Positions 28,645-47,811 of a stretch of 47,878 bases of DNA are shown in pieces; position 1 is the first letter of the stretch, and the number at the start of each line of letters is the position of its first letter. Origin of the DNA: Deltaproteobacteria bacterium (lineage in GTDB: Bacteria; Desulfobacterota; Syntrophia; Syntrophales; UBA2185); assembly GCA_037143735.1 (NCBI GenBank), contig JBAWYD010000003.1:1-47878 (forward strand). The letters are read 5' to 3'. The notes under the pieces were generated by a model. It saw only the letters and a program-made list of their open reading frames with translations, had not been told where the DNA came from and did no database searches. Position numbers and translations under genes: made by a program.

Positions 28645-29903
28645 TAAAACCTGAAGGATGGCAAATGGCTCAGAGAAGAGCCAGTGATGCCGTCAACAAT
28701 GTTCTGTAACCATTGTGTTCCGATGATTGATTCCCCTTTGTCCAGACTTTTAATGACCTGCAGATAGTTCTTCTCGCCCCTGTTGATGTTATGGTGAATT
28801 ATTCCTGTGAAATCATCGCGGTTTTTTTGATCGATCCTTGTTTCATGCCCGCTTTTGAAGCAGGTTTCAATTCCCGGCCAGTTTTCAAGAAATTCCTTTT
28901 CCTGTTTGAGGACGGTCTTTTTATATCGTATTTTTTCTCCCTGGGCTATGGACGCTTCCATTTTTTCGGAAAGGGCCCGAAAGCGGTTTATTCTTTCCCC
29001 GATCATGCTTTCGAGGGCGTCCATCATTCCCATGTACAATCCTTCTCCCATATCCTGAAGCCGGAAAAAAGGCTGCCGGATGTGAATATACCATTCTCTG
29101 AGAGCCAGAAGATTGGCAAGATAGGAGATGTTGTTATAGACCCGTCGGGTGACGTCCCCGTAAAAGCCCGTATGAAAGGTCTTGTCTCTTGCCGCATCGT
29201 TTTTTTCGATTAACAGTTTGCCGCCTTCCGGACAATCTTTGCGATAAACCGTTCCGGCCGCGATGACTGTTCCATACCCGATTCTGACGGGGCCGACGAG
29301 CCCCCCCTGACCTCCCAAAAAAATGGGAGACTGGTTGAGCATCACTCCTCCGGGCACATCACCGACGAGAGATGGCGTTGCCTTATCCTGATTCGGGGTA
29401 TAGTTGAAATGGATATAGGAGCTGCCAACTTCACTGTGATCTTTTCTGCTTGTGCCTCCCGCCATAAAACAGTCGCAAAAATTAATCAGGCTGCCCAGGG
29501 TGACAAAGGGGAAAAGGAGGGTTTGCTTCAATCCGACTGTATGAGCCGCGTTCGCTTGTTCTTCCAGGATGCATCCTTCCCGGACAAGGGCGCCGCTTGA
29601 CAGACTGGATCCTTCAAGGAAGACGGAGGATTTAAAAAAGCCGCCCTTCAATTCCACACGGGGTCCGAGCTGGCAATCAACGACAGTAACCGGTGATTCC
29701 TGGCCCAATCTTGACCCTTTGGAAATCAATGTTTTTTTACCATATATCCTGGTTCCTGAATGGATGATAACATCCTCACCGGAAATCCTGTCGGGATCAA
29801 CCTCATTTCCTATTTCAATAGAAAGGGGGTTGTGAATCCTCACGCCTTTGGCCATGAGTTGCCTGATATTTTCGGATAATCCGGTTGTATTTTCTTTTAT
29901 CAC
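28644..29903 (-). CDS. GlmU-like left-handed beta-helix (acetyltransferase-type) protein lacking the uridylyltransferase domain
   Basis: Begins LMAKGVRIHNP, like the start of the GlmU C-terminal domain. Hexapeptide-like repeats, HFNY, GPVRIGYGTVIAAGT. No LAAGxGTRM motif. Its stop overlaps the glmS-like start (TAATG). Confidence 0.7.
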   Translation of the reverse strand: MIKENTTGLSENIRQLMAKGVRIHNPLSIEIGNEVDPDRISGEDVIIHSGTRIYGKKTLISKGSRLGQESPVTVVDCQLGPRVELKGGFFKSSVFLEGSSLSSGALVREGCILEEQANAAHTVGLKQTLLFPFVTLGSLINFCDCFMAGGTSRKDHSEVGSSYIHFNYTPNQDKATPSLVGDVPGGVMLNQSPIFLGGQGGLVGPVRIGYGTVIAAGTVYRKDCPEGGKLLIEKNDAARDKTFHTGFYGDVTRRVYNNISYLANLLALREWYIHIRQPFFRLQDMGEGLYMGMMDALESMIGERINRFRALSEKMEASIAQGEKIRYKKTVLKQEKEFLENWPGIETCFKSGHETRIDQKNRDDFTGIIHHNINRGEKNYLQVIKSLDKGESIIGTQWLQNIVDGITGSSLSHLPSFRF

Positions 29904-29915
29904 TTCATTTCCTTA

Positions 29916-30227
29916 CTATTTCCCTTGCCGGGATGCTTCACACTGAATACTCATTTTGACCAATTTATTCTGGAAGGTATTTCTATTGATCCCAAGATAT
30001 GTAGCTGCGGAGCTTTTCACATTGTTGGAACGCTTCAGGGCGATCCTGAAAAGACTCCTTTCAACCATGGCCATCACTTCTTCATGGAGCCTGCTTTTCT
30101 CTTTCACGGCAGCGCACAGGATGGTGGCAATATCTTCGAGTTTTTTTTCGATTATGTCTTCCACAGAAGAAGGAAGTAACACTTGAATGTCTTTCTCTCC
30201 AACTATTCCAAGCTTCCTGGGATTCAT
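29916..30227 (-). CDS. Small Fis-family helix-turn-helix protein
   Basis: VERSLFRIALKRSNNVKSSAATYLGINRNTF, a Fis-type HTH. Confidence 0.8.
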   Translation of the reverse strand: MNPRKLGIVGEKDIQVLLPSSVEDIIEKKLEDIATILCAAVKEKSRLHEEVMAMVERSLFRIALKRSNNVKSSAATYLGINRNTFQNKLVKMSIQCEASRQGK

Positions 30228-30270
30228 AATAGACCTGGTTCCTTTCTTGTGTAAAATGTAATAAATCGTT

Positions 30271-30795
30271 TTACGAAGTTATGATTTTGAAGACTATAAT
30301 GGCAACGAGAACCGCCGCTGCAAACCATGTCGAGATGATATCGGATATTTTTTTGACAGGATGTTCAATCTGGTTCCGGACCTCGTCGTCGGTTCTTTCC
30401 CTCTCTACATGATCGGCGATCTCCCGGAGAAGTCCGGGAAATTCACCGTAGGCATTGGTCAGGATCTGGAACCCCTTCGTGGTAGTCAACAGAAGGTACA
30501 CCCGATTCCGCATAACAACCGTTCCCACCTGGGTAATATCTTCCCAGAGAAGTTTCTTATCCCTGAGAAATTTTCTTATGAGAATGCCCTGATCACCCGT
30601 TAAAACCTTCCGGGATAAAGATTCAAGAAAAACAAGGAGGGCGGTTATGAAAATCACGGCAAGAACAAGCCTTTCAAGGGAGGAACCTTTGAAAAAAAGA
30701 GACAGGAGCAGGAGGAGGCATAAAAGGACCACATCAACGAAAAAGGCAACGAGAAACGCCTTTTTTATTTTGAAGGTTTTTCGATACATATACAC
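30271..30795 (-). CDS. Hypothetical membrane protein (two N-terminal TM helices, PH-like soluble region, C-terminal TM helix)
   Basis: Hydrophobicity pattern; sits co-directionally between moaC and the Fis-like gene. Confidence 0.6.
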   Translation of the reverse strand: MYMYRKTFKIKKAFLVAFFVDVVLLCLLLLLSLFFKGSSLERLVLAVIFITALLVFLESLSRKVLTGDQGILIRKFLRDKKLLWEDITQVGTVVMRNRVYLLLTTTKGFQILTNAYGEFPGLLREIADHVERERTDDEVRNQIEHPVKKISDIISTWFAAAVLVAIIVFKIITS

Positions 30796-30806
30796 GATTG
30801 GTTGTT

Positions 30807-31286
30807 TTATTCTTCCCTGGTGAAAGCGCCGCTCTTGCCGCCGCGTTTGGAGATCAATTTAATGTCTGACAGGGTGATATTTTTATCGGCGGATTTGCAC
30901 ATATCATAAATCGTCAGGGCCGCTACACTGACAGCCGTCATCGCTTCCATTTCCACGCCGGTTCTTCCCACTGTTTTTACGACGGCTTCAATGATAATCT
31001 CCCCCGATTCATCGTTTGTCCTGAAATGAATGTCAATGCCTGTCAACTCAAGGGGATGACACATGGGAATCATGTCGCTTGTTTTTTTTGCTGCCATGAT
31101 TCCTGCAATCCTTGCAACACCGAAAACATCTCCCTTGGATATTTTCCCTCCTGTAACGAGAGCGAGAGTGTCCCGGTGCATCACGACCTTTCCCCGGGCG
31201 AGGGCTTCCCGTACGGATGGTTCTTTTACCGTAACATCGACCATCCGTGCTTTGCCTTTATCATCAAGGTGGGATAATGTTGACAT
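30807..31286 (-). CDS. moaC: Cyclic pyranopterin monophosphate synthase
   Basis: LSHLDDKGKARMVDV, AGIMAAKKT, IPMCHP, TGVEMEA, TIYDMCK, KRGGKSG. Confidence 0.97.
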   Translation of the reverse strand: MSTLSHLDDKGKARMVDVTVKEPSVREALARGKVVMHRDTLALVTGGKISKGDVFGVARIAGIMAAKKTSDMIPMCHPLELTGIDIHFRTNDESGEIIIEAVVKTVGRTGVEMEAMTAVSVAALTIYDMCKSADKNITLSDIKLISKRGGKSGAFTREE

Positions 31287-31569
31287 ATATGCGCTTGTCC
31301 CTACTATGAGGTATACTCTGATGCAGGGAAATTATCATAGCCCATCCCCCCAGTCAAGAAGGTTAAAAATATATTTTTTAAAAAGATTTATCTTGATATA
31401 AAGGTTCTGATTCTATAATACTTTTCGCTATTCATATCGATGACGTTTCAGTAATCGGATAACGTTGACCGCTATGTAGCGTTTTGAAAATTTCGTAAAG
31501 ATCCACCTTGATAACAGGTTGTTCCTCTCTTCCATCCCTCGATGAGGAGAGATCTGCAGGGGGCGAAGA

Positions 31570-33102
31570 TTGATTGTAAAGGTCGCAAGCAGTACCGTCA
31601 TCGGTATAGAATCGTATCCCGTTGATGTAGAGGTCGATGTTTCCCCCGGTCTCCCTCAATTCTCGACGGTGGGACTTCCCGATGTTGCCGTCAGGGAGAG
31701 CAAAGATCGCATCAAGGCGGCCATAAAAAATTCCGGCTACGGATTTCCGAAAAATCACGTCACCGTAAACCTTGCCCCCGCTGATATCAAAAAAGAAGGA
31801 ACGGGTTTTGATTTGCCTATCGCCGTGGGCATCCTGGCGGCGGAAGGCTGTATCAGGTCCGAAACCCTTCAGGATTACATCCTGGTCGGGGAATTGTCTT
31901 TAGACGGCAGTATCAAGGGCGTTCATGGCGTCCTCTCCTCGGCGTTTCTGGCAAGAAAGGCGGGCAAAAGGGGAATCATCCTGGCGAGTGAGAACGCCGC
32001 CGAAGGGGCGGTGGTGGAATCCACCGACGTCATACCCGTTGACAGGCTGTCCGATGTCGTGGAGTTTTTTAACGGAAACAGAAAAATAGAGCCGTTCAAA
32101 CTCGACGTCAGGGATGTATTTGAACGGAGCCTCCATTATCCGCATGATTTTGGTGAGATACGGGGACAGGAGCAGGCAAAGAGAGCCCTGGAGGTTGCAG
32201 CGGCGGGCGGACATAATATCATCATGATCGGTCCTCCCGGGTCGGGGAAGACCATGCTTGCCCAGAGGCTTCCCACAATTCTTCCGAAACTGTCTTTTGA
32301 AGAAGCGATTGAAACGACAAAGATATTTTCCGTCGCCGGTATTCACGAAAAAAAGGATATCCTGCTGGGAACAAGGCCCTTTCGGGCGCCTCATCATACC
32401 ATTTCAGCCGCAGGACTCGTGGGAGGAGGACACATGCCCAAACCGGGCGAAATCAGCCTTGCCCACCACGGGGTTTTGTTTTTAGATGAACTTCCCGAGT
32501 TCAGAAGAAATGTCCTTGAATCCTTGCGGCAACCCCTTGAGGACGGATCGGTGACGATCACACGGTCTTCCGTTACGGCTGCCTATCCCTCGGAATTTAT
32601 GCTTGTAGCGGCAATGAATCCCTGTCCATGCGGCTATTACGGCGATACGAAAAGATCCTGCCGGTGTTCCCCGCAACAGATACGGCAGTATCAATCAAGA
32701 ATTTCGGGGCCCCTCATGGACAGAATCGATATTCATATAGAAGTGCCGTCCGTGAAATATCGCGACCTTACAGGCAAATCGGCAGGTGAATCGTCCCGGG
32801 ATATTGCAGAGCGGGTCAACAGGGCGAGAGGGATGCAGGACAGGAGATTTCTTCAGGATAACAACATCCGGTTTAATGCCCGCATGTCCGATAAACAGAT
32901 CAAGGCGTATTGCATCATCGATGACGATTCCCAGAAGCTCATCGAGATGGCCATAGACCGGCTCGGTCTCAGCGCCCGTGCATACACAAAGATTCTCAAG
33001 ATCGCACGAACCATAGCCGATCTGGATGAAGAAGAAGCCATCCGATCCAGTCACGTTGCGGAGGCCATTCAATATAGAAATCTTGATAGAAAGATGATTT
33101 GA
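31570..33102 (+). CDS. comM: YifB/ComM family Mg-chelatase-like AAA+ ATPase
   Basis: VGLPDVAVRES, VNLAPAD, GELSLDG, GPPGSGKTMLA, PFRAPHHT, LFLDELPEF, NPCPCG, SGPLMDRIDI, ARTIADL, EAIQYR. TTG start. Confidence 0.95.
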   Translation: MIVKVASSTVIGIESYPVDVEVDVSPGLPQFSTVGLPDVAVRESKDRIKAAIKNSGYGFPKNHVTVNLAPADIKKEGTGFDLPIAVGILAAEGCIRSETLQDYILVGELSLDGSIKGVHGVLSSAFLARKAGKRGIILASENAAEGAVVESTDVIPVDRLSDVVEFFNGNRKIEPFKLDVRDVFERSLHYPHDFGEIRGQEQAKRALEVAAAGGHNIIMIGPPGSGKTMLAQRLPTILPKLSFEEAIETTKIFSVAGIHEKKDILLGTRPFRAPHHTISAAGLVGGGHMPKPGEISLAHHGVLFLDELPEFRRNVLESLRQPLEDGSVTITRSSVTAAYPSEFMLVAAMNPCPCGYYGDTKRSCRCSPQQIRQYQSRISGPLMDRIDIHIEVPSVKYRDLTGKSAGESSRDIAERVNRARGMQDRRFLQDNNIRFNARMSDKQIKAYCIIDDDSQKLIEMAIDRLGLSARAYTKILKIARTIADLDEEEAIRSSHVAEAIQYRNLDRKMI

Positions 33103-33112
33103 TGTTAAGAAG
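33059..33112 (+). repeat. Left copy (attL-like) of the 54-bp direct repeat; forms the functional comM 3' end
   Basis: CGGAGGCCATTCAATATAGAAATCTTGATAGAAAGATGATTTGATGTTAAGAAG, 47/54 identical to 43375-43428. Confidence 0.9.
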
Positions 33113-33174
33113 ATGCGTCCTACCATGATTGCAAACTTAGCTTCAATAAAGATCGATTCTAAAGGATAATAGCA

Positions 33175-34686
33175 GTGCGAAAGCTTACCGTCAAAACAAT
33201 AAAAATGAGTAAACGCAACCCGGTTGACATTTGCAGATTTTATGACTCTTCATCTCCATGCGGTTGTGAGTTGGAAAATATTATTGACTCATGTCATGAT
33301 GGTATTTTCATAACCGACGGGCAGGGGATCATCTTGAAGGTTAACAGCGGATGGGAGCGAATTTGCGGACTTCACCGAGAATTCATGTTAGGGAAATGCG
33401 CTCAGGATCTCGTAAATGAGAAGTTCTATACGGAATCTTCTGTAATGGCAGCAATAAGGGCGGAAAAACCGGTTACCATAATGCTGGAGATGACTAAAGG
33501 GGAGAAGGTCGGTCAGAAAATAATGGCAACCGCCATACCTGTATGGAACGAAAACGGAGAAATCAAACGAGTGGTTGCCAATATCAGAGATATAACGGAA
33601 ATACTTTATTTAAAAGAATTATTGGACAAAACCCAGCTGTTGAATGAATTATATGTCGCCGAAATTGAGCAGATGCGGCTTAACCAATTTACCAGTAACC
33701 ACGGCTTGATAGCTCGGAGCCCTTTAACGATACGTGTAATGGAAATGGTAGCGCGTGTCGCCAGTTTTGATGTGTTTGTTTTAATCACCGGCGAGTCTGG
33801 TGTCGGCAAGGAAGTGATTGCGAATGCTATTCACAAGCAAAGCCAGCGTTCAAAGGGGCCTCTCATCAAAGTGAACTGCGGAGCGATTCCTGAAAATCTG
33901 CTTGAATCTGAACTTTTCGGGTACAACTTCGGCGCCTTTACCGGCGCAAGAAAACAGGGGAAACCCGGCATGTTTGAACTCGCCGACAAAGGAACCCTGT
34001 TTTTAGACGAAATTGGGGATATTCCATATAACCTCCAGGGCAAGCTTTTAAGAGCTTTACAGGACCGTGAGATCATGCGGATTGGCGGCCTGAAGACCAC
34101 CCCTGTTGATGTGCGCATCATTGCTGCGACAAACAAGAATCTTGAAGAAATGGTAAATAACGGTTCTTTTCGTGATGACCTTTATTATCGCCTTAACGTT
34201 GTTTCAATTGAAATTCCCCCATTGCGTGAACGCAAAGAAGACATCCCTATCTTTGTTATGCACTTTCTGGAAAAGATGAACAAAAAACATCAACGCAACA
34301 AGCGCATTGCTTCAGAGGTTCTTGATAATTTCATGCTCTACTCCTGGCCTGGCAACGTACGTGAATTGGAGAATGTAATAGAGCGGTTGGTTATCATGAC
34401 CGAGGAGGATGAAGTCAACATGAAACATGTGCCAATTCAAATTAAAAGTCAGAATATTCCTGAAACGATGAACATTATCGATGATGTTGGATTTAAAACG
34501 GCAATTGAGCATACTGAAAAACAATTGCTTAAACAGGCACTCCTGAATCACCGGAGTACGAGAGAAATCGCAAAATCAATGAAAATCAATCAATCCACCG
34601 TAGTGCGCAAACTAAAGAAATATAACCTGTCTCCATCCTACAATGGTGAACCACACAAGCCACCAAACCAGGGACAACATGAATGA
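33175..34686 (+). CDS. sigma54-dependent transcriptional activator (PAS-AAA+-HTH)
   Basis: PAS (DGIFITDGQGIILKVN), GESGVGKE, ESELFG, intact GAFTGA, LFLDEIG, WPGNVRELEN, C-terminal HTH (STREIAKSMKINQSTVVRKL). Start GTG 33175 or ATG 33205. Confidence 0.95.
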   Translation: MRKLTVKTIKMSKRNPVDICRFYDSSSPCGCELENIIDSCHDGIFITDGQGIILKVNSGWERICGLHREFMLGKCAQDLVNEKFYTESSVMAAIRAEKPVTIMLEMTKGEKVGQKIMATAIPVWNENGEIKRVVANIRDITEILYLKELLDKTQLLNELYVAEIEQMRLNQFTSNHGLIARSPLTIRVMEMVARVASFDVFVLITGESGVGKEVIANAIHKQSQRSKGPLIKVNCGAIPENLLESELFGYNFGAFTGARKQGKPGMFELADKGTLFLDEIGDIPYNLQGKLLRALQDREIMRIGGLKTTPVDVRIIAATNKNLEEMVNNGSFRDDLYYRLNVVSIEIPPLRERKEDIPIFVMHFLEKMNKKHQRNKRIASEVLDNFMLYSWPGNVRELENVIERLVIMTEEDEVNMKHVPIQIKSQNIPETMNIIDDVGFKTAIEHTEKQLLKQALLNHRSTREIAKSMKINQSTVVRKLKKYNLSPSYNGEPHKPPNQGQHE

Positions 34687-34773
34687 CCCCGCTGGCCATT
34701 CATGTAAACGCCCCACTGACTGACCTGTTGCTACCGCCTTTCTTTAAGAATCCTAAAGCTTGCCCGGCAATGA

Positions 34774-35913
34774 TCACCTTAGAATACTGCCGGCGATAAC
34801 CATGCGCATTGCCTCACTCGTGCCTTCATAGATTTGGGTAATCTTCGCGTCCCGCATCAGGCGCTCCACCGGATATTCGCGGCTATAACCGTAGCCGCCA
34901 AATACCTGGACGGCATCGGTCGTAACGGACATAGCGGTATCAGAAGCAAACAGCTTGGCCATGGCCGCTTCCTTTGCATAAGGCAGATTATTCGACTTGT
35001 TATAAGCAGCTTTCAAGGTTAAAAGACGGGCGGCTTCAATTTTTGTAGCCATGTTGGCAAGCATAAAGCTGATAGCCTGCTGGCTCGCGATGGGTTTGCC
35101 GAACTGAATACGTTCTTTGGCATATTTCATAGCGGCATCCAGGGCGCCCTGAGCGATCCCGACCGCTTGAGCGGCGATACCGATGCGGCCGCCATCCAAA
35201 GCAGTCATGGCAATTTTAAATCCATCGCCTTCTTTACCCAGGAGGTTTTCGGCAGGAGTACGGGCATTTACCATAATGACTTCACGCTGCACCGATGCAC
35301 GAATGCCCATTTTGATTTCTTTTTTACCGAAGCTCAAGCCGGGCGAACCCTTCTCGAGAATTAATGCGCTCATCCCCTTAAGGCCGGCCTCTTTATTTGT
35401 TTTGGCAAAAATGAGTTCGACTTCCGCCTCCCCACCGTTCGTGTTGAAAACCTTGGTTCCATTCAGGATATAGAAATCGCCGTCTCTGACCGCAGTTGTC
35501 GATGCATTGCCTACGTCTGTGCCGGCATTGGGTTCTGTGAGACCAAATGCTCCCACCTTTGTGCCTTGTGCCAACGGTACCAGGTATTTTTGTTTTTGCT
35601 CTTCCGTACCGTATTTAAAGATCGGCCAGGAACACAGGGAAGTGTGCACCGACATACCGATAGAAGTCGATGCGTCCACACGGGAGATTTCCTCAACCGC
35701 AATGGCATAAGCGATGAAATCCATATCGCCTCCACCATACTTTTCAGGAAACGGCAAACCCATCAGGCCCAATTTTCCCATTTCATCAAATATCCCTCGG
35801 TCAAATAGCTCTTTTTCGTCACGCTCTACAATAGTTGTAGCTAATTTCTTCTCGACATATTCCCGCACCATTTTGCGGATGCCTTCATTTTCCGGTGTCA
35901 TAGTGAAATTCAT
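34774..35913 (-). CDS. Acyl-CoA dehydrogenase (butyryl-CoA dehydrogenase/CarC-like)
   Basis: [38 protein letters not shown], catalytic IYEGT. Confidence 0.93.
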
Positions 35914-35983
35914 ACATCACACTCCTATTAACAGTTTTTTTATCATTAATGTCTCGCCGCCTTAAGGACGACGATTGCACTTC

Positions 35984-37177
35984 TTATTGCAAAACTTCCC
36001 TTAACCTGGCAGTCAAAGCCGGCACCACCTCGTACACATCGCCGACTATTCCGTAGGTTGCTACTTTAAAGATAGGCGCATCAGGATCTGTATTGATTGC
36101 AATGATGACATCAGATGTTTGCATACCCGCTAAATGCTGAATAGCGCCGGATATGCCGCAAGCGATATAGATTTTGGGTGCTACCGTTTTTCCTGTTTGA
36201 CCGACTTGGTGCGGATAAGGCTTCCACCCGGCGTCAACCGCCGCCCGAGACGATCCGACCGTACCCTTTAATACTTGTGCCAGTTCCTCAACGATCCGGA
36301 ATCCTTCCGGCTTTCCAAGCCCCCGTCCGCCGGATACGATAATCTCGGCGTCTTCCAAATTGCATGAGAAAGAACAAACCTTAACAACATCGATCAGTTT
36401 TGTTCGAATGTCTTCCTCATTGATCGCCAATTCCTCTCTGATTATTTTACCTGTACGGCTGTAGTCCGGTTCAGGCTTCTTAAAGACCTTGGGCCTTACT
36501 GTACCCATTTGCGGACGGTGGTTTGGACAAAAAATAGTTGCCATAATATTGCCGCCAAAAGCAGGCCTTGTCCACGCTACCAACCGGGTTTCCATATCTA
36601 TGGCAAGACTCGTGCAGTCGGCGGTTAATCCCGTCTTCACCCTGGCGGCTATGCGAGGGCCTAAATCGCGGCCATCGTTGGTTGCACCCAATAATATGAC
36701 AGAAGGAAGATACTTTTTAATCAAGTGCGTAAAGACAATCGTATAGGCATCCGTAGTATAGTTTTTAAAAGCAGTACCTTCCGCCAAATATACGTTGTCG
36801 GCGCCGCTGGCAAACAGATCTTTGCTCATTTCCGCTACTTTATCACCAATGAGAACGGCAGACACTTCCTCGCCAAGCTCTTCAGCGAGTTTTCTTCCCT
36901 CGCCCAGAAGTTCCAGCGATACGTTGCGAATACGTCCATCCCGATGTTCGATAAATACCCATACCCCTTTGTAGGAGCTGATATCTTCCGGCTCTTCCGC
37001 TTTCTCCCGCTCCACGACGATGGCAGAAACGTTACAACTGCTTTCACAAGCGCCGCATGATGTACAATCATCAGTAATAACGGCCTTGTTATCTTTCATA
37101 ACAATTGCACCGTACGGACAACTCTCAATGCACATTTCACAACCAATGCATTCTTCCGATATAATCTTCACAGACAT
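35984..37177 (-). CDS. etfA: Electron transfer flavoprotein alpha subunit with N-terminal 2x[4Fe-4S] ferredoxin domain
   Basis: CIGCEMCIESCP and CTSCGACESSC, then GLTADCT, RPAFGGN, SGGRG, QVGQTGK, GISGAIQH. Confidence 0.95.
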   Translation of the reverse strand: MSVKIISEECIGCEMCIESCPYGAIVMKDNKAVITDDCTSCGACESSCNVSAIVVEREKAEEPEDISSYKGVWVFIEHRDGRIRNVSLELLGEGRKLAEELGEEVSAVLIGDKVAEMSKDLFASGADNVYLAEGTAFKNYTTDAYTIVFTHLIKKYLPSVILLGATNDGRDLGPRIAARVKTGLTADCTSLAIDMETRLVAWTRPAFGGNIMATIFCPNHRPQMGTVRPKVFKKPEPDYSRTGKIIREELAINEEDIRTKLIDVVKVCSFSCNLEDAEIIVSGGRGLGKPEGFRIVEELAQVLKGTVGSSRAAVDAGWKPYPHQVGQTGKTVAPKIYIACGISGAIQHLAGMQTSDVIIAINTDPDAPIFKVATYGIVGDVYEVVPALTARLREVLQ

Positions 37178-37197
37178 ATTTACTGCTTCCTCCTCGC

Positions 37198-37980
37198 CTA
37201 TATTATCTTGGCCTGCATCAACTTATCGACAAGCAAATCAACAGCGTCTTTGCTATCGCCCTGAATGATTTCACCTTGACCGCGCTGCTGCGGGGTAAAT
37301 ATTCGCCGAACCTGAGTAGCTGAACCATTAAGGCCTACGTCCATAGCATCAATGTCAAGGTCGGCAGCGGTCCATACGGGGATCTCACTACGGTAGGCTT
37401 TCGCCGTACCTTTTACCGTGGGAAGGCGGGGGTCGGTGGCCAGTTTGATGATAGTCACCACCAACGGCAGTTTGGCTTCTATTACATCATATCCCTCATC
37501 CTGTTCACGGTCGGCGATGACCCTTTCACCGTCAACTTCAATTTTGCTGACATAAGTAATCTGGCCAATACCAAGATGTTCCGCCATTTCCGGTCCAACC
37601 TGGGCCGTATCCCCGTCAATCGCCTGTTTACCGCAAATGATTAAATCGACGTTGCCCATTTTGCGCACTGCCGCAGATAATGTATAGGATGTAGCCAGGG
37701 TATCCCCACCCGCAAACGCTCTATCACTTAATAAAATGGCCTGATCGGCGCCCATGGCAATACATTCCTTCAGCGCATCCGCTGCCTGCGGCGGTCCCAT
37801 GCTTAATGCAGTAATCCTTCCTCCGTGTTTATCTTTAAGCTGTAGTGCCATTTCGAGAGCATATTTATCAAAAGGATTGACAATGCTCGGCACCCCTTCC
37901 CGAATCAACGTATTGGTATCAGGATCGATTTTTACTTCTGTTGTATCAGGTACCTGTTTGACACATACAACAATTTCCAT
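37198..37980 (-). CDS. etfB: Electron transfer flavoprotein beta subunit
   Basis: CVKQVPD, NPFD, SMGP, DRAFAGGDTLAT, GKQAIDGDTAQVGP. Confidence 0.95.
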   Translation of the reverse strand: MEIVVCVKQVPDTTEVKIDPDTNTLIREGVPSIVNPFDKYALEMALQLKDKHGGRITALSMGPPQAADALKECIAMGADQAILLSDRAFAGGDTLATSYTLSAAVRKMGNVDLIICGKQAIDGDTAQVGPEMAEHLGIGQITYVSKIEVDGERVIADREQDEGYDVIEAKLPLVVTIIKLATDPRLPTVKGTAKAYRSEIPVWTAADLDIDAMDVGLNGSATQVRRIFTPQQRGQGEIIQGDSKDAVDLLVDKLMQAKII

Positions 37981-38090
37981 AATAATTCTTACTCCCGGTT
38001 ATGTAATGATTAAGTGTTTTGTTGCAAGGATACCAGCCGTTTCAGATTCGTTAACATTCACGCTTCATGAAATAAAAGACATTGTTGTTA

Positions 38091-38152
38091 TAGGGGGTAT
38101 GGCATTTCTACAATCAACAAATACCCGGATGTAACTATTTACCATACCCCCA
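38091..38152. promoter_or_regulatory. Intercistronic inverted repeat between the MFS gene and etfB
   Basis: GGGGGTATGG...CCATACCCCC arms. Confidence 0.4.
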
Positions 38153-38177
38153 ATACGGATCATTAAGAATCCGGATC

Positions 38178-39509
38178 TTAAGCCGCTTTCTTGGTTATGA
38201 TTGGTTTCGAATCGGTTGTGAAATACATCGCCACTGCACCGACAATGAGTGATACCATACAGAACAAGAAGGTGGCCTGAAAGGCTGCCACAGGAAATTT
38301 ACCGTCAACCTTCCCGTAGAGATCGAGCACCACGCCCATCAATGCCTGATATAAAGCCCCGCCTATAAAGTACCATATATTCAGCATCCCGTTGGATGTC
38401 GCCATGAAACTGACCGGCTGGCCATCGGCTATGTGTGCGTAATTGGGCACATATGCTCCGCAGAAAAAGCCCATGGCAAATAACAATGGATAAAACATGT
38501 TAGGGGGGATCGATCCGGCGAAGAAAGCTAACGGAATCCAGGTCAAAACGTAGATAATCATGCCGTACAGGGAAGTCTTCCTGCGGGATTTCAGAATACG
38601 GTCGGAACACCAACCGGCCGCAAAACACCCTAACGCCATCCCGATAGGCCAGAACATGAGCATGTTGGCCGCCTGTTGCTTAGGCAAGCCGACTATCTGC
38701 TGCGCATAGGGAATGAACCAGAGCCCCTGGAATCCCATGACCGTACCGTAAATAACAAAAGCGTAGAGTGATATTAACCAATAGTTCTTCATCTTTAAGA
38801 GCTTAAAGAAATTATCCTTAAAGGTCTTCTTCTGATCTGCAGTCTGTGCCGGGTAGTAATCAATGCCGTCAATCTCCGAAACTGTAGGATAACCCATGTC
38901 GCCCGGTTTATTTCGGACGATTATGTAGTCGACAATAGATATGATGACCATAAAAGCGCCTAACCATAAGAATGAATTCCGCCATCCAACGATACCCACC
39001 AGAAACGCAAGCGGCGCGGATGCGAGTATGGCGCCGACATTGCCCCAGGTGAGCATCACACCGGTAAGCGTCGCTAATTCATTCGGCCGGAACCAGTTAT
39101 ACAGGATCTTCATACACGGCATCCATACAACCGCAACGCCCACACCCATTAAAAAGCGGCCTAATATGCACCAACCGAAGGTTGTCGCCAAACCAAAGAG
39201 CGCCGTGCCGATTGCCGCTATGATGAAAAAGGAACTCATTGAAAGTCTGGGGCCAATTTTATCGGCCAGGACTCCCGACGGGAATTGCATCGCCGCATAA
39301 GGATAAAAGTACATCGATGACAAGATACCGAGGGTGGTCGCCGACAGACCAAATTCCTTCATCAGCTCCGGTGCAACAACCGCTGGTGCAACACGGTCGA
39401 AATATACAAAAATATACGTTAACAAGAACATTCCATAAGTAACCCAACGATACGTAAGCATCTTCTTGGCTTTTGCAACATCAACTCCTGCGGCTACCTT
39501 TGCACTCAT
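38178..39509 (-). CDS. Major facilitator superfamily transporter (organic-anion type)
   Basis: About 12 TM helices, YFDRV in TM1, GVLADKIGPR motif A, GWCSDRILKSRR. Confidence 0.92.
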   Translation of the reverse strand: MSAKVAAGVDVAKAKKMLTYRWVTYGMFLLTYIFVYFDRVAPAVVAPELMKEFGLSATTLGILSSMYFYPYAAMQFPSGVLADKIGPRLSMSSFFIIAAIGTALFGLATTFGWCILGRFLMGVGVAVVWMPCMKILYNWFRPNELATLTGVMLTWGNVGAILASAPLAFLVGIVGWRNSFLWLGAFMVIISIVDYIIVRNKPGDMGYPTVSEIDGIDYYPAQTADQKKTFKDNFFKLLKMKNYWLISLYAFVIYGTVMGFQGLWFIPYAQQIVGLPKQQAANMLMFWPIGMALGCFAAGWCSDRILKSRRKTSLYGMIIYVLTWIPLAFFAGSIPPNMFYPLLFAMGFFCGAYVPNYAHIADGQPVSFMATSNGMLNIWYFIGGALYQALMGVVLDLYGKVDGKFPVAAFQATFLFCMVSLIVGAVAMYFTTDSKPIITKKAA

Positions 39510-39660
39510 ATAACTCTCCTCCTCATTAAATTTTTATATGCCTCTTTGCTGCAACTATTCTTTATCTCGGTTCTTTACTGACAAAAAAAATTAGAATCTT
39601 AACTGTGCCTGCCTTGAAAGATCTTTTTCCAGAAATTTGTACGTTTTTTCCTTAGTCGGC

Positions 39661-39683
39661 TGCCCCGCCCTGAGGGCGGGGCA
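39661..39683 (-). promoter_or_regulatory. Perfect GC-rich hairpin just downstream of the dehydratase-like gene
   Basis: TGCCCCGCCC-TGA-GGGCGGGGCA. No U-tract on the minus strand, so more likely a stabiliser or pause site than a full terminator. Confidence 0.55.
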
Positions 39684-39699
39684 ATACGCTCCAGCCTTA

Positions 39700-41169
39700 T
39701 TATTTTTTCTTCTTTTCCGGCTCCGGTATTTCTTCAGTAATACCGGCAATTTTTCTGGCATAATCAGCAAACTGGTCAACGGGAGTCAGAGATCTGACAA
39801 CCAATTTTGCACCATCGGGTGAACCGCCGCCGTGCATACATCCCGGAACGCCTGCGCCAAGGGTCAGCCACTCTGAAAGCCTTGCTGCGCGAGCCCTTGA
39901 TTCAGCGCTGAATTTATCGCAGGCTTTCAAAGCCGATTGAACCATGGCTCCTATTTTTTTGTCATTAAAGTCCTGCGCTGAAGGGAAACATCCTGTTTCA
40001 ACGACACCGCCTCCGATGTCCTGGCAGAGGCGCTTTGTTTCATAAGGAAGAGTCGCCACATGGACTTTATTGGCATGAGCGATCAGGGAATCTGAAACCC
40101 ACATACCGCCGGGCCCCTTTTTTCCTAAAGCCATCGCGCCAATTCCCATTGCGTATGTGGTCTCATTATTAACGGCCATTTCCACCATCTTGCCGGCAAA
40201 TGTGCTCGCCGCCAATCCATTCGTCCTCGCCATAAGCGCCGCAGCGCCAATCATGACGTCTCCCTGACCGGCGACGCAGGCGCCAATGCAAGCACGGTAG
40301 TTGGCTGTAAAATATTCTATAATTTTCCCGGAATACTTGAATTCCTTGCACATGAAAACTCTGTCATTGGGAACAAAGCAGTCTTTGAAAAACAGAAAAG
40401 CCTGGGTGATGCCCGTCTCCGGTATATCGAATCCGCCTTCCATTTCTCTGGTATCGCTTGGCCTGCGCGCCTCCACGATTGTAAGACCTTTTATATCCTT
40501 CGGTACAACGCAGCAAAGGGCGTAATCCTGATCCTCTTCCCTGTAACCGCCTCCCGGTAAAAGAAATATCTCGTTAGAGGCGGCCACACCGCAGATCATC
40601 GCTTTCATTCCGCTGATGACGATTCCATCTTCACGGACTTCTGTAATATGCAGATTGCTGTCCGGATTGGTCTGCTGTGATGGTCTCAGGCTGCGGTCCC
40701 CTTTGGCGTCTGTAAGAGCGCCCGCCACGACGAGACCATTTTGCTGAGAATAGATAATCCATTTTTTGAGACGCTCCTGGTATTTAGTTCCGTATTCCTT
40801 GTCCATAAGCGCCGTGATATTCCACATTACATTCTGGGCGTTCCATCCGACACACACGCCGCCGCTGCAACTTCCCGTAAAGCGGTACATCCACCTCTTC
40901 AGTTTTGAATTAGCCATAATGTCTTCCAGCGTTTCCATCATGGAAGTCCATCTGTGTATTCTTTCACCGCTTGTAAAAGTGGAGTTGGTAGTGAAATCCT
41001 GGGCATATTGCTGATCATGTGATGCGTCAAATGCCCGCGCATGGCTTTCGACAGCCCTCTTTGTCGCCGGATGAGTCGTAACATCCTCAATCAACTCCCC
41101 AAATTTGTAAATATTCGGCCTCATTGCCTTTAATGATTTTTTATAGTCTTCTCTCGTTTTCAGTGCCAT
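39700..41169 (-). CDS. 4-hydroxybutyryl-CoA dehydratase / 4-hydroxyphenylacetate-3-hydroxylase family flavoprotein (divergent)
   Basis: GALTDAKGDRS, DGIVISGMKA, FVPNDRVFM, QDIGGG, MHGGGSP. Cys motifs CSGGVC and RACIGAC. Confidence 0.85.
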   Translation of the reverse strand: MALKTREDYKKSLKAMRPNIYKFGELIEDVTTHPATKRAVESHARAFDASHDQQYAQDFTTNSTFTSGERIHRWTSMMETLEDIMANSKLKRWMYRFTGSCSGGVCVGWNAQNVMWNITALMDKEYGTKYQERLKKWIIYSQQNGLVVAGALTDAKGDRSLRPSQQTNPDSNLHITEVREDGIVISGMKAMICGVAASNEIFLLPGGGYREEDQDYALCCVVPKDIKGLTIVEARRPSDTREMEGGFDIPETGITQAFLFFKDCFVPNDRVFMCKEFKYSGKIIEYFTANYRACIGACVAGQGDVMIGAAALMARTNGLAASTFAGKMVEMAVNNETTYAMGIGAMALGKKGPGGMWVSDSLIAHANKVHVATLPYETKRLCQDIGGGVVETGCFPSAQDFNDKKIGAMVQSALKACDKFSAESRARAARLSEWLTLGAGVPGCMHGGGSPDGAKLVVRSLTPVDQFADYARKIAGITEEIPEPEKKKK

Positions 41170-41221
41170 TTTATCCTCCTGTTACCTTTATCCTTATGGT
41201 TTGAAAGTTCAGGTCCAATAT

Positions 41222-42799
41222 TCAGTTAATGTCTCGTAATATCTCTCTTTTGATGCCCATGGGCGTTTCATGCTGGAAAATTCGTGCATCCATCACTTTA
41301 AGGTTAGGAGCAACGAGAGGCTTGTATTCCATTTGAGCGAATATATCTTTTTCAATATCTACGCCGGGAGCAACCTCCGTCAGCATGACTCCTTCAGGTG
41401 TCAGTTCAAAAACGGCACGTTCCGTCACATAAACGATCTTTTGACCGCTTGTCTGCCCGTACTCACCGCTGAAGGTAATATGCTCCACTTTTTTGACTAA
41501 TTTTTTTATCTTGCCTTCTTTTACTATTTTCAGCTTTCCATCGCCGATCTCTAACTCAAGGCCGCTGGCAGTGAGTGTTCCACAGAACACTACTTTCTTT
41601 GCACTCTGTGAGATGTTAATAAAACCGCCCGCGCCTGCTATCCTCGGACCGAACTTACTTACGTTCACATTCCCGTACTGATCCATTTCCGCCATACCTA
41701 ACACAGCTACATCGAGCCCGCCGCCATCATAAAAATCAAACATAAGGGGATGGTCAATCAACGCTTCCGGATTCACTGCCGTTCCAAAATAGAGCTTGCC
41801 CAGAGGCACGCCGCCAATTGCTCCCGGTTCAACCGTCATTGTCATGAATTCGGTGAGTCCCTCTTCAGCCGAAACCACACCAACACCTTCCGGCATGCCG
41901 ATTCCAAGATTAACGACTGCGTTTGGCACAAGTTCCATAGCGCACCTTCGGCAAACTACTTTTCTTTCGCTCATCGGCAATACAGAAACCTGATTTAGAG
42001 GAACTCTTATTTCACCGCACAGGCTCGGATTGTACTGCTCTGCCATGGGAATCTGCCAGTGGTTCTCAGGCTTTGCAACGACGATCGCGTCCACAATTAT
42101 TTTTGGTATCTTTACCATCATCGGATGAAGCGATCCCGCTTTCGCCACCCTCTCCACCTGCACAATTACTTTACCCCCAGACCCCTTGGCAGCCAACGCC
42201 AGCAAGGCAAATTCCAGGCAAATAGCTTCTTTTTCAATGGATATGTTGCCATTTTCGTCTGCAGTGGTTCCGCGAATAATGGCAACATTTATCGGGATGG
42301 CCTTATAAAACAGGTATTCCTTGCCATCTATTTCCATTAAGCGGACATACTCTTCATGGCTGATGCTGTTTAGCTTTCCTCCGGTTTCTCTGGGATCCAC
42401 AAATGTTTTCAGGCCGATATGTGTAATGATCCCCGGCTTCTTGCCGGCAGTGGCTCTCCATACATGGAGAATTACACCCTGGGGGATATTGTATGCCTCT
42501 ATTTTGTTAGCAACAGCCAACTTGATCATATCCGGCTGCAATGCCCAGTGACCTGAAACGACCTTCTTTAACAGCCCTTCTTTTGCCCAGCGATTCAGTC
42601 CCCAGTTTGATTTCCCGTCATTCTGGCTTGCGCCAAATGTAAGCGTTAAATTATTTGGTTCTCCAGTTTCTAAAAAACTCTTTTCAACCGCCTTTGACAT
42701 TTCTTCCGGATGGCCCATCCCAACAAATCCAGAAGTTGCAACCGTGTCTCCATTTTTGATCAACTTAACCGCTTCTTCTGCAGACATGAATTTTGCCAC
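41222..42799 (-). CDS. Family I acyl-CoA:acetate CoA-transferase (Pct/YdiF type)
   Basis: IGLKTFVDPR, RGTTADENGN, VNLGIGMPEG, catalytic Glu in TVEPGAIGG, FDFYDGGGLD, GAGGFINISQ, YVTERAVF. GTG start with GGAGG RBS. Confidence 0.93.
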   Translation of the reverse strand: MAKFMSAEEAVKLIKNGDTVATSGFVGMGHPEEMSKAVEKSFLETGEPNNLTLTFGASQNDGKSNWGLNRWAKEGLLKKVVSGHWALQPDMIKLAVANKIEAYNIPQGVILHVWRATAGKKPGIITHIGLKTFVDPRETGGKLNSISHEEYVRLMEIDGKEYLFYKAIPINVAIIRGTTADENGNISIEKEAICLEFALLALAAKGSGGKVIVQVERVAKAGSLHPMMVKIPKIIVDAIVVAKPENHWQIPMAEQYNPSLCGEIRVPLNQVSVLPMSERKVVCRRCAMELVPNAVVNLGIGMPEGVGVVSAEEGLTEFMTMTVEPGAIGGVPLGKLYFGTAVNPEALIDHPLMFDFYDGGGLDVAVLGMAEMDQYGNVNVSKFGPRIAGAGGFINISQSAKKVVFCGTLTASGLELEIGDGKLKIVKEGKIKKLVKKVEHITFSGEYGQTSGQKIVYVTERAVFELTPEGVMLTEVAPGVDIEKDIFAQMEYKPLVAPNLKVMDARIFQHETPMGIKREILRDIN

Positions 42800-42885
42800 G
42801 CCCCTACCTCCAACTGAATTTTGAAAATATTCGATCCGATTTATTTTTTTGCGTTGTTTCTCTGTGGTGGTTTACATGTTATGGG

Positions 42886-42900
42886 GCAATTTATATGCCA
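42886..42900 (-). promoter_or_regulatory. sigma54 (-24/-12) promoter of the island operon
   Basis: TGGCATATAAATTGC has exact GG-N10-GC spacing and lies ~90 bp upstream of the CoA-transferase start. Confidence 0.85.
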
Positions 42901-43278
42901 GTAGTACCAACACGGTGTAACGCGTGGTTGCCTGCAATATATGAGTGTACTTTAGTTAACGACCTGATAATCAGACATATATGTTTTATTTTTGATTTCG
43001 AGAGTTGGAATATTTTGAAAAGCCCCAGTGAAAGCAAGAGCTTCTGCATCATCAAACTTCCATGATGTCTACTTTTATATGTCGTTTACTATGGATCACT
43101 CAGCTTTAGAAATGGACATATAAATTCATAAAGAGTTGACGATTAAGCTTATAGAAAAAGTTTATCTCTAATAATATGGATCAATGCGGCAGGATCGACA
43201 ACTGTTAGCTTTTGAAATGATTTTAGACAATACAATAATCATAATAATTACTTGTCATAACTGTAACTGAAAACATTG

Positions 43279-43317
43279 CCGATGCATATCGTCATCGGTC
43301 GATGCTCTATTGCATCG
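43279..43317. promoter_or_regulatory. Twin palindromes, candidate upstream activator sequences
   Basis: CGATGC-ATATCG-TCATCG (43280-43297) and CGATGC-TCTATT-GCATCG (43300-43317), 20-bp period. Confidence 0.6.
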
Positions 43318-43374
43318 CTTAATGGAGATCTTCCAGAAATAACAGAGACTGGACGGCAAATATTAATGATTTAT

Positions 43375-43428
43375 CGGAGGCCATCCAGTACAGAAACCTT
43401 GATAGAAAAATGATTTAATGCTAAGAAG
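43375..43428 (+). repeat. Right copy (attR-like) of the 54-bp direct repeat; orphan comM 3' end
   Basis: CGGAGGCCATCCAGTACAGAAACCTTGATAGAAAAATGATTTAATGCTAAGAAG, which encodes EAIQYRNLDRKMI-stop. Confidence 0.9.
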
Positions 43429-43490
43429 TCTCGCAATGACGTGAGACACGGTTTTTCAAAAGTTCAAGTCTGACGCTCTCGTCAAAAGTC

Positions 43491-43568
43491 GTCATTCCCG
43501 CGTAGGCGGGAATCCAGAGAGAATGTAAATGTTCAAAAAGACTGGATTCCCGTTTTCACGGGAATGAC
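43491..43568. repeat. REP/MITE-like palindromic element (two ATTCCC-N8-GGGAAT units in inverted arrangement)
   Basis: GTCATTCCCGCGTAGGCGGGAATCCAG, a ~24 nt spacer, then CTGGATTCCCGTTTTCACGGGAATGAC. Confidence 0.8.
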
Positions 43569-43605
43569 AGAAAATGGTGTTTAATGAATTCAGGGGGATG
43601 AGTTT

Positions 43606-44682
43606 ATGGAGATCAGGATTGAAAAAATCGAACCGGAGAAGATGAAGTCGAAACCTGTTGATGAGTCCAAGCTCGGATTCGGCAAGATATTTACCGATCA
43701 TATGTTTACCGCGAAATATCATGTCGACCGGGGGTGGCACGATGCTGTGATAGAACCCTACCGGGCCTTATCCCTCGATCCCACATCGATGTGTCTTCAT
43801 TATGGGCAGGAAATTTTTGAAGGGATGAAGGCATACAGGGGTAAAAACGACGCAATATTTCTCTTCAGGCCTGATGAAAACATCAAACGCATGAACGTCT
43901 CCGCGGAAAGAATGTGCATGGCGGCAATAGATGCGGGGATGTTTATGGATGCTTTGAAAAGGCTGATTCTTTTGGAGAAAGACTGGATTCCCCGGGGCAC
44001 AGGAACTTCCCTCTATATCCGTCCAACCCTGATTGCAACGGAGAAGGCTCTGGGTGTGCATCCCGCCAATGAGTACCTCTTTTTTATTGTTGTGGGGCCT
44101 GTGGGGGCATATTATCCGGAGGGTTTCAATCCGACAAAGATGTATGTCAGCGAGGAGTATGTCCGATCGGTGCGTGGCGGAACTGGAAATTGTAAAGCGG
44201 CCGGCAATTATGCCGCAAGTCTTTATGCGAGCAGAATAGCCAATGAAATGGGATATACGCAGGTGTTGTGGCTTGATGCCATTGAAATGAAATATGTTGA
44301 AGAGGTGGGTACGAGCAATGTCTTTTTCGTCATTGGTGATGAACTGATCACGCCTCCCCTGGGTGGGACAATCCTTCCCGGTGTCACACGCGATTCGGTC
44401 ATTCAGTTAGCCAGGAGCTGGGACATTCCGGTGAATGAGAGACCCATATCCATAGACGACGTTTTGTCAGCTCAGGCCGACGGCAGTCTGAAAGAAGCTT
44501 TTGCATCGGGGACGGCAGCCATCGTTTCACCCATCGGGCAGTTTTTTTATAAGGGCAAGGCGTCGGTCATCAATGAAGGAAAAGTTGGCGCCCTGACTGA
44601 AAAATTATATAATGAAATTCTGCAGATTCAATATGGTGAAAATGAAGATCCCTTTGGATGGAGAGTTAAGGTCACAGATTAA
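43606..44682 (+). CDS. ilvE: Branched-chain amino acid aminotransferase
   Basis: LHYGQEIFEGMKAY, LYIRP, PLP lysine in CKAAGNY, EEVGTSN, ILPGVTR, GTAA. Confidence 0.96.
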   Translation: MEIRIEKIEPEKMKSKPVDESKLGFGKIFTDHMFTAKYHVDRGWHDAVIEPYRALSLDPTSMCLHYGQEIFEGMKAYRGKNDAIFLFRPDENIKRMNVSAERMCMAAIDAGMFMDALKRLILLEKDWIPRGTGTSLYIRPTLIATEKALGVHPANEYLFFIVVGPVGAYYPEGFNPTKMYVSEEYVRSVRGGTGNCKAAGNYAASLYASRIANEMGYTQVLWLDAIEMKYVEEVGTSNVFFVIGDELITPPLGGTILPGVTRDSVIQLARSWDIPVNERPISIDDVLSAQADGSLKEAFASGTAAIVSPIGQFFYKGKASVINEGKVGALTEKLYNEILQIQYGENEDPFGWRVKVTD

Positions 44683-44746
44683 GAAAAGGTTATCGGAAGG
44701 GGATATTCTCCTTGATACAGGCACTTGGAACTGAAATCCACAGGCA

Positions 44747-44782
44747 TGTTGAAAAGGTTGTTGATAAGGCTGTTGATAACAA
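44747..44782. repeat. Three DnaA-box-like motifs in tandem with 12-bp period
   Basis: TGTTGAAAAggt / TGTTGATAAggc / TGTTGATAAcaa, each one mismatch from the DnaA consensus TGTGNA(T/A)AA. Confidence 0.55.
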
Positions 44783-44959
44783 CTGTAAGTCTTCAAATGA
44801 TTCATATTTATACCTCATTGCATAAGGTTTGTGCAATCGATAAATGTAATAATTACGGCAACATAAGAAAGCGCCCTTAAATTTCTATGACTTATCGGTC
44901 CCTTCCGGCCAGGTTATGAACTTCGGGAAAAAAATGTGCCATTTCGAGTTGTTTTTGTC

Positions 44960-45660
44960 ATGAAAAAACATAAAAAAATCGTATGCGGGATCTATCCGAT
45001 TCCCCTGATAATCACAGCAGGCATCTTGATATGCCTGCTGTTTTTTCCTGTTCCAGCGGCCCGGGCAGAGCTTTTGTCTCTCAGGGAAGTTGTCACAAAA
45101 ATACAGGAGAGGTATGAAAAAACGGGGGATTTGAAGGCGCGGTTTGTTCAGGAAATCACCATTAAAGCCCTGAAGAAATCGGAGAAGGAAGAAGGGGTAA
45201 TTTATATAAAAAATCCGAAGAGAATGCTGTGGCATTATTTAAAACCGAAAGTAAAGAAGCTGATCATCAATCCCGAAAAAGCGTGGCTCTACGTTCCGGA
45301 AGACAGGGTCGCGTACGTCCAGAATGCCGAGGATGTTCTTAAATCGAAATTGACGGTCAAGCTCCTTTCAGGCATAGGAAAACTGGATGATGATTTTAAC
45401 GTTAGCTTTTCCGGGGAAGGCCCCGTTGATGCAAAGGGCAATTATCTTGTCACCCTGATCCCGAAAGAATCGGGCTTGGGTGTCGACAGGCTTTTTCTGA
45501 CCATCGACAAAGACACCTTTTTGATGATACAGTGCCGTTTTTCCGACATGTATGGCAACGTCACCCGCATTCGATTCACGGATATCAAGACCAATACCAG
45601 TCTCTCCGATCGCCTGTTTGCCTTCAGGCCGCCTCAGGGGGTAGAGGTGTACAACCTGCC

Positions 45661-45664
<4 letters not shown>
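44960..45664 (+). CDS. lolA: Outer-membrane lipoprotein carrier protein LolA
   Basis: Signal peptide, ARFVQE, GVIYIKNPKRMLWHY, WLYVPE, FAFRPPQGVEV. Confidence 0.8.
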
Positions 45665-47655
<1,991 letters not shown>

Positions 47656-47811
47656 ACGGGCTTTTTCGTTTACTTTACACGGTGATTATGCCATTATCCC
47701 GTATCAAGATCGACCACGGGAATAAAGTCTCAATCATCTTCTGAAGCTAACCTCTTTAACAATTTTCAATAGACTGATCGGGCTGTTTGTCGAGAGGAGG
47801 GTTGTGGATCC

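Follow-up and report, generated by a model that had tools for sequence, protein, structure and literature searches.

We analysed a stretch of 47,878 nucleotides (the window), which is the whole of contig JBAWYD010000003.1 in the metagenome-assembled genome (MAG) of a Deltaproteobacteria bacterium of the order Syntrophales (G000; assembly GCA_037143735.1, 2.56 Mb in 262 contigs). The subject is a 10.3-kb island that lies between comM and ilvE and is bounded by two copies of the 3' end of comM. The single same-genus genome used for comparison, G001, is 95% complete, and its ComM and IlvE are 99% and 97% identical to those of G000. The features that define the locus are the following.

31570-33102, plus strand: comM in use, 510 aa, with ChlI, Mg_chelatase and Mg_chelatase_C domains (Pfam); 98.0% nucleotide identity to G001 over 31570-32950
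32975-33058, plus strand: stretch of comM left of the repeat with clustered differences from G001 (12 differences in 32951-33058); possibly imported
33059-33112, plus strand: left copy of the repeat, the imported last 13 comM codons, TGA stop and 10 nt; stop and following sequence as in the in-use comM ends of island-bearing relatives
33113-33135, plus strand: 23-nt left-end motif ATGCGTCCTACCATGATTGCAAA, 10 nt after the stop; 0 mismatches to the pattern of island-bearing relatives
42836-43374, no strand: non-coding right end of the island, without counterpart in related clusters or islands
43375-43428, plus strand: right copy of the repeat, the orphan native comM end (last 13 codons, TAA and 10 nt); 53/54 identical to G001 and continuous with the G001 downstream sequence
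43428-43457, plus strand: terminator-like hairpin just after the native end of comM, a sequence also present after comM in G001
43606-44682, plus strand: ilvE (class IV aminotransferase, Pfam), the ancestral downstream neighbour of comM according to the comM-ilvE order of relatives

The repeat is direct, 54 nt long and present in two copies, which lie 10316 nt apart and are identical at 47 of 54 positions (87%). All other direct-repeat families listed in 28000-47878 are of 28 nt or less. In the 2.56-Mb assembly, the sole partner of the comM-end part of the right copy is the left copy (E 4.9e-12), and the remaining 20 matches of the right-copy query belong to an unrelated dispersed repeat. The two copies differ at seven positions (33069, 33072, 33075, 33081, 33093, 33101 and 33105 in the left copy), and the longest exact run common to both is 11 nt. 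Five of the differences fall in sense codons and are all silent, one is the TGA/TAA stop and one follows the stop. Only 20 of the 117 single-base changes possible in the 13 codons are silent, which gives a P of about 1.5e-4 for five silent changes out of five. The silent-only differences therefore indicate that both copies diverged while they were coding DNA.

The ancestral arrangement was determined by searching ComM and IlvE in 40 relatives. Comparison with G001 demonstrated that comM directly precedes ilvE at an empty site, and the same was found in G002; altogether, 20 of the 40 relatives, G001 and G002 included, have a full-length comM whose end lies 45-228 nt upstream of ilvE on the same contig. 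The comM end of G001 shares 53 of 54 positions with the right copy and then runs on into the right flank of the window. Because the empty site of G001 matches the right copy together with its flank, it is the right copy that is native and was displaced, and the left one that was imported. A contig from run X5, which belongs to another study, joins 32644 to 43377 and continues into ilvE, as an empty-site relative would. Both junctions are crossed by Logan contigs of run X1, the product of another assembler, at 32605-33512 with 0 differences and at 39657-43504 with 1 difference; contigs, not raw reads, were compared, and these are not independent of the MAG because X1 is probably its source sample. 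Foreign DNA of 10.3 kb thus sits between the ancestrally adjacent comM and ilvE, and the imported left end keeps ComM at full length. An earlier note, made from the sequence alone, had reported the duplicated comM end with its silent coding differences, had taken the right copy for the original host end and had proposed that the incoming DNA gave comM a new end, leaving ComM whole. These claims are borne out by the repeat itself (47/54, all five sense-codon changes silent), by the continuation of the G001 match into the flank, by the 510-aa open reading frame (ORF) with all three ComM domains, and by the empty sites of relatives, a comparison for which the note had asked.

The extent of the imported sequence at the left end was assessed by comparing comM of G000 and G001 segment by segment. 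Differences number 27 in the 1378 positions of 31570-32950, 12 in the 108 of 32951-33058 and 5 in the final 44 nt of the gene (1351/1378, 96/108 and 39/44 identical, respectively), and the divergence already rises about 85 nt left of the repeat. In the segment 32951-33058, G000 is closer to G002 (100/108) than to G001 (96/108). The polarity of 32975-33058 is not settled by this, because G000 and G001 each differ from G002 on their own. Within the last ~130 nt of its comM, the empty-site genome G001 (L009, G001:C74) carries 7 changes of its own in 84 nt against a background of 2%, a cluster that might be the scar of an earlier gain and loss of an island. At 32849, comM of G000 has one codon more than G001 and other relatives, and contigs of runs X2 and X8 are also without these 3 nt. 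An antisense ORF at 32695-33126, which starts inside the 23-nt motif, is considered spurious; in the relatives compared it stops after 2 codons (27 in the second copy of G013).

The island interval 33175-42799 is filled by seven ORFs, each with a non-recombinase Pfam assignment. They are given below, together with a promoter-like site.

33175-34686, plus strand: sigma-54-dependent activator with a PAS sensor and a helix-turn-helix (HTH) domain (Pfam/NCBIfam)
34774-35913, minus strand: acyl-CoA dehydrogenase; best NCBIfam match acryloyl-CoA reductase AcrC, below the curated cut-off
35984-37177, minus strand: electron transfer flavoprotein alpha subunit with an N-terminal 2x[4Fe-4S] ferredoxin domain (Pfam)
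37198-37980, minus strand: electron transfer flavoprotein beta subunit (Pfam/NCBIfam)
38178-39509, minus strand: MFS transporter of organic-anion type (Pfam/NCBIfam)
39700-41169, minus strand: HpaB-family enzyme (Pfam; NCBIfam matches far below cut-offs)
41222-42799, minus strand: fused family-I CoA-transferase (Pfam/NCBIfam)
42886-42900, minus strand: sigma-54 promoter-like site TGGCATATAAATTGC, 87 nt upstream of the CoA-transferase gene; 1 mismatch to the consensus

The insert appears to be a complete regulon, in which a sigma-54 activator and a putative sigma-54-type promoter accompany six genes whose products would take up a short organic acid and oxidise it at the CoA level. Sites such as TGGCATATAAATTGC, with 1 mismatch to the sigma-54 consensus, are expected 2.67 times by chance per window, and this site is weak evidence alone. 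The HpaB family includes 4-hydroxybutyryl-CoA dehydratase, and the HpaB-family enzyme of the island may have a similar role. No cargo protein matches an NCBIfam model above its curated cut-off, and no substrate is therefore assigned to the operon. A search of the whole assembly gave no match to PF00589 (tyrosine recombinase) or PF07508 (large serine recombinase) on the window contig; together with the assignment of all seven ORFs to other functions, this agrees with the earlier observation that no integrase lies between the copies. The G+C content is 0.463 in the island and 0.503 elsewhere in the window, and the third-position values (GC3) overlap (0.46-0.58 vs 0.52-0.60); these shifts are too small to carry the weight that had been given to a GC3 contrast as evidence.

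Downstream of the stub, a palindromic REP/MITE-like element of about 104 nt (43471-43573) lies between the native comM terminator and ilvE and is behind 20 of the 22 assembly matches of the right-copy query. It is absent from this position in G001 and in the X2 and X8 contigs, which read AAT or ATAG there. An Rfam search over 30000-46000 returned two sub-threshold matches (WsnRNA46 and FtrB), which both fall on the dispersed repeat at 43470-43586. Retention of the stub as the holder of an ilvE promoter is unsupported, as a simple sigma-70 scan finds no promoter in 43375-43605.

The origin of the cargo was examined in related genomes and in metagenomes. The cluster is syntenic with clusters in all 11 species of the sister genus g5 (blast matches of 76-86%; 79-90% nucleotide identity per gene), and in those g5 genomes that have the cluster and comM on one contig, the cluster is not near comM. 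The core genes that flank the island are 66-79% identical to g5 and 94-97% identical to G001 at the nucleotide level, and G001, at 95% completeness, has paralogue-level matches to the cargo only. None of 60 metagenome loci encoding a relative of the CoA-transferase holds comM or ilvE. The closest of these loci has 92.8% nucleotide identity and its homology ends at 42835; the limits of the cluster itself are about 33156 and 42835. For the final 539 nt of the island, no counterpart was found in the sister-genus clusters, related islands or metagenome loci compared, and within 42836-43374 only 43051-43089 has short matches to sister-genus clusters. For most cargo genes, the window copy falls outside the g5 group. 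The HpaB-family gene of the window is 90.0% identical to that of G018, and the G018 gene is 84.7% identical to that of G005, another g5 genome; this gene looks like a recombinant mosaic, because it is closer to G018 than G018 is to G005. These comparisons place the donor of the cargo in a lineage near the sister genus g5 of the same family. Runs X2 and X8 contain island-like contigs at roughly 95% identity, which may or may not lie at comM; the parts that they leave uncovered were not counted as evidence.

The same architecture occurs in related genomes. A pattern for the last 21 nt of comM was counted in 22 genomes of the same family; it occurs two to four times in six of them (G000, G005, G006, G008, G011 and G013) and once in the other 16, and a reversed-pattern control gave 0 matches. 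These six genomes have one to three islands that end in comM-end stubs. In the island-bearing relatives, 1.2-8.1 kb of unrelated genes separate a full comM from a comM-end stub that sits beside ilvE (the island of G011 is split over two contigs). G013 has three tandem islands of 5.6, 4.25 and 4.2 kb, each behind its own comM end (L022, G013:C11:125400-142700); the first two of these repeats share 97% identity over about 155 nt, of which 44 nt lie past the stop. The cargo varies by genome and includes a DEAD-box helicase, sensor kinases, an AbiE toxin-antitoxin pair, RtcB, Hsp20, a protein kinase and a patatin fragment. No site-specific recombinase was found among the island ORFs scanned with Pfam, a scan that left some small ORFs outside; one IS3-type transposase fragment was seen in G177. 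Neither was PF00589 matched in the comM-ilvE regions of 10 genomes (G000, G005, G006, G008, G011, G013, G015, G018, G019 and G035). Islands of 14.6 kb in G163, which belongs to another family, and of 19 kb (the part seen) in G177 are likewise without a site-specific recombinase among the ORFs scanned.

The in-use comM ends of the islands have a TGA stop in common, followed 10 nt later by the 23-nt motif, except in G005. The motif is present in 6 of the 22 family genomes, always behind an island-type comM end except for one 2-mismatch match elsewhere. When 185,579 species were scanned with a stricter pattern, only four of the same island-bearing MAGs were recovered; the motif of G163, 22/23 identical to that of G000, was missed by this pattern. 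Viral contigs gave 0 matches. A stretch of 2677 nt is 95.9% identical between G013 (L022 7700-10373) and G163 (L122 5297-7972), which belong to two families; it encodes an AbiEi/AbiEii pair and an unassigned ORF of 267-328 aa, and lies just behind a comM end in both. Given that the comM genes of these two families are only about 70% alike, this identity indicates recent mobility of these islands. What the earlier note observed and mainly inferred stands, and the finding is less singular than it looked.

Where the stubs begin differs among the islands. Measured in nt back from the end of the comM stop codon, the stub starts are -44 (G000), -48 (G005), -57 (G008), -60 (G115), -62 and -111 (G013) and -69 (G163), with longer ones at about -128 (G013) and at -480 (G006, G015, G163 and G115). 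The 10-nt CGGAGGCCAT at the left edge of both window copies, which the earlier note called an identical left core, is not a common crossover core, because the stub starts vary in this way; the divergence from G001 also begins about 85 nt further left.

Recombinase genes were found beside comM in two genomes in which the gene is interrupted. In G035, of another family (L040/L041, G035:C6:499000-532600), and in G018 (L039, G018:C207), comM is split at codon about 350, and the 5' fragment lies beside a gene for a protein of 499 or 502 aa with Resolvase and Recombinase domains. The two proteins are 75.7% identical, although their hosts are in different families. The G035 insert is about 30 kb long and also encodes a TraG/TrwB-like coupling protein; both of its junctions retain the TG within AATCC(A/T)TG|TCCCTGCGG. 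The longest stub, of 160 codons in G006, begins at the same TG as the comM split of these elements. It is preceded by a right-end module, which consists of a small HTH gene and a fixed junction sequence. This module was sought in 301 genomes of the order and found in nine, from three families, with 70-90% nucleotide identity. It abuts comM codon about 351 identically in G006, G015 and both copies of G163; in G115 the module is present and the sequence just before comM is different. It is truncated in G013, G008 and G011, and the right junction of G008 is a cut about 70 nt into the conserved module at a TCCAT microhomology. In the fullest islands, the left end provides a replacement for comM codons about 351-510, followed by the 23-nt motif, and the native 160 codons are displaced. 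The in-use comM is foreign from about -500 nt in G006 (whose stub is close to its congener G010) and switches near -400 in G008 and G011. In G163 (L122-L124, G163:C1:262000-321999), two modules, each with a 159-codon comM stub, face opposite ways at a distance of 30 kb, and ilvE is turned round with respect to comM, which points to an inversion between two copies of the island.

Considering these data, we lean, at slightly better than an even chance, towards the view that the window island is a member of a set of recombinase-less comM-docking islands of Syntrophales, founded by a trans-acting serine recombinase, later trimmed and now immobile. The founding event would have been a site-specific insertion at the TG of comM, for which a serine recombinase acted in trans in the manner of cis-mobilizable elements; such an enzyme is proposed because full islands displace comM from the very TG that the large-serine-recombinase elements use. 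A deletion, in this lineage or in a donor close to it, would then have taken away the right-end module and shortened the displaced piece of comM to 44 nt. Homologous recombination within comM, here or on entry from a close donor, would have reduced the foreign part of the in-use gene to its final ~45-130 nt. The island would now be fixed, because it has no canonical right junction and the assembly contains no relative of the comM-type recombinases: the sole Recombinase-domain gene of G000, on contig C146, matches CcrB at a score far below the cut-off and shows no similarity to them in tblastn. Three routes had been left open by the earlier note (mobilisation in trans, loss of an integrase and homology-assisted recombination), and the data favour a mix of the first and the third.

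Several observations weigh against this origin. No trace of the right-end module was found in 42800-43374 of the window by blastn, tblastn or tblastx, and the foreign part of the in-use comM begins only at about -128 nt instead of -480; for these two reasons, the link of the window island to the family rests on its position, its replaced comM end and the 23-nt motif. The displaced native comM that is left in the window amounts to 44 nt up to the end of the stop codon, not to about 160 codons. The short stubs beside ilvE start within 25 nt of one another (-44 to -69) in five genomes of two families, a clustering not obviously expected of random deletions that arose independently. The proposed helper recombinase is neither on nor next to any island examined, and PF07508 is unmatched in G006, G013 and G163. 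In their element-side half-sites, the island junction and the recombinase-bearing elements do not appear clearly alike. Finally, the 84 nt of comM at 32975-33058 also contain a cluster of changes particular to G001, and the altered genome may be either.

One-sided homologous recombination, for example through natural transformation, with an illegitimate right join is a serious alternative for the last step; as an account of the island as a whole we consider it rather unlikely. The 3' part of comM would have been the anchor for incoming linear DNA, and the far end would have been joined illegitimately at a short microhomology within comM of the recipient, duplicating the last 44 nt, with no site-specific recombinase acting in this genome. 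The spread of stub starts from -44 to -480 speaks for such joining, as do the G+C-rich 10-nt identity at the right junction, the TCCAT junction of G008 and the onset of divergence from G001 about 85 nt left of the repeat, which fits an upstream crossover. However, 10 nt is long for a chance microhomology, an identical right junction in G006, G015 and twice in G163, across two families, would not result from illegitimate joining, and the common 23-nt left motif would require the same kind of donor every time.

Classical site-specific integration at the 10-bp CGGAGGCCAT, with a tyrosine or another type of integrase, acting in trans or since lost, is improbable. It would explain why direct repeats of a target-gene 3' end, here attL and attR, flank foreign DNA and share 10 identical nt at their left edge, and the stub of G005 starts only 4-6 nt away. 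Nevertheless, no other island has this boundary, the differences from G001 reach left of the presumed core, and the two full islands tested (G163a and G006) have no terminal inverted or direct repeats that score above shuffled controls; moreover, the contig and the comM-ilvE regions searched in 10 genomes yielded no integrase. An assembly or binning artefact, in which the island was wrongly joined to comM and ilvE, can be set aside with near certainty: the window is a whole contig of a 262-contig MAG and its junctions were checked on contigs rather than raw reads, but an exact run of 11 nt is too short to mislead a k-mer assembler, separate X1 Logan contigs cross each junction with 0-1 differences, and the same architecture is present in other assemblies of relatives.

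A wider proposal is speculative and in our estimate more probably wrong than right. Syntrophales may host undescribed recombinase-less islands that are satellites of comM-targeting serine-recombinase conjugative elements, with a 160-codon comM replacement and the 23-nt hallmark on one side and the HTH gene and fixed junction on the other. The host of such a satellite would keep ComM, which the helper would destroy; the satellites would stack in tandem and exchange catabolic and defence cargo between families, and the window island would be a trimmed, locked-in descendant.

For this genome, the island means that a syntrophic bacterium gained a complete, self-regulated, predicted short-organic-acid pathway without loss of ComM. 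The comM-ilvE interval is a place to seek strain-specific metabolism in metagenome-assembled Syntrophales. The 6 of 22 family genomes and two further families provide natural cases of recombinase-less islands that keep their target gene whole, stack and cross families, and mobilisation in trans by the serine recombinase of an unrelated conjugative element becomes testable.

In the literature, searched as full text without supplements, no paper was found on comM islands in Syntrophales or on a serine recombinase that targets comM. The gene is a recurrent target elsewhere. The AbaR/Tn6022-type transposons of Acinetobacter baumannii are Tn7-like elements that encode their own transposition functions, are flanked by short target duplications and leave comM interrupted. 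The window island resembles them in its target; unlike them, it has no transposition genes and comM is restored. Cis-mobilizable elements (CIMEs) are closer. Pavlovic and co-workers reportedly described them in 2004, with tandem accretion at the 3' end of fda in Streptococcus thermophilus. As with CIMEs, the site of the window island is empty in close relatives, repeats of the target-gene 3' end form its bounds, integration and transfer genes are absent, and tandem arrangement is possible; CIMEs are thought to move by the recombinase of a related element. Unlike the case of CIMEs, no cognate element with matching ends was found here, the window island appears to be without an intact right att site, its stub boundary at -44 recurring in no other island and the recombinase-bearing elements using the TG at codon about 350, full members replace 160 codons, and the candidate enzyme is a serine rather than a tyrosine recombinase. 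The island also differs from an element with its own large serine recombinase, as its contig has no Resolvase+Recombinase gene, unlike G035 and G018.

Two further systems share parts of this arrangement. Acidithiobacter ferrooxidans has a 94.9-kb comM island that is flanked by direct repeats, like that of the window, and that differs in its 14 bp repeat and in the integrase aboard (PMC10322971). In McMurdie et al. 2011 (PMC3146451), the ssrA-specific islands of Dehalococcoides are tandem, have 3'-end repeats and a CcrB-like serine recombinase, and are in some cases proposed to be cis-mobilizable. Like the Syntrophales set, they lie downstream of a single-copy conserved gene and carry catabolic or respiratory cargo, and several have no integration module. 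Their target, as that source describes it, is a tmRNA gene, with a fixed 20 bp repeat, and many have a recombinase at the left edge; the Syntrophales islands use a protein gene, leave stubs of 44 to 480 nt and have no recombinase in the islands examined. Collectively, recombinase-less islands bounded by target-gene 3'-end repeats, sometimes in tandem, are known, as is comM as a target elsewhere; the absence of a recombinase from every island examined is new, and so are this island family with its conserved hallmarks and its long, gene-restoring end.

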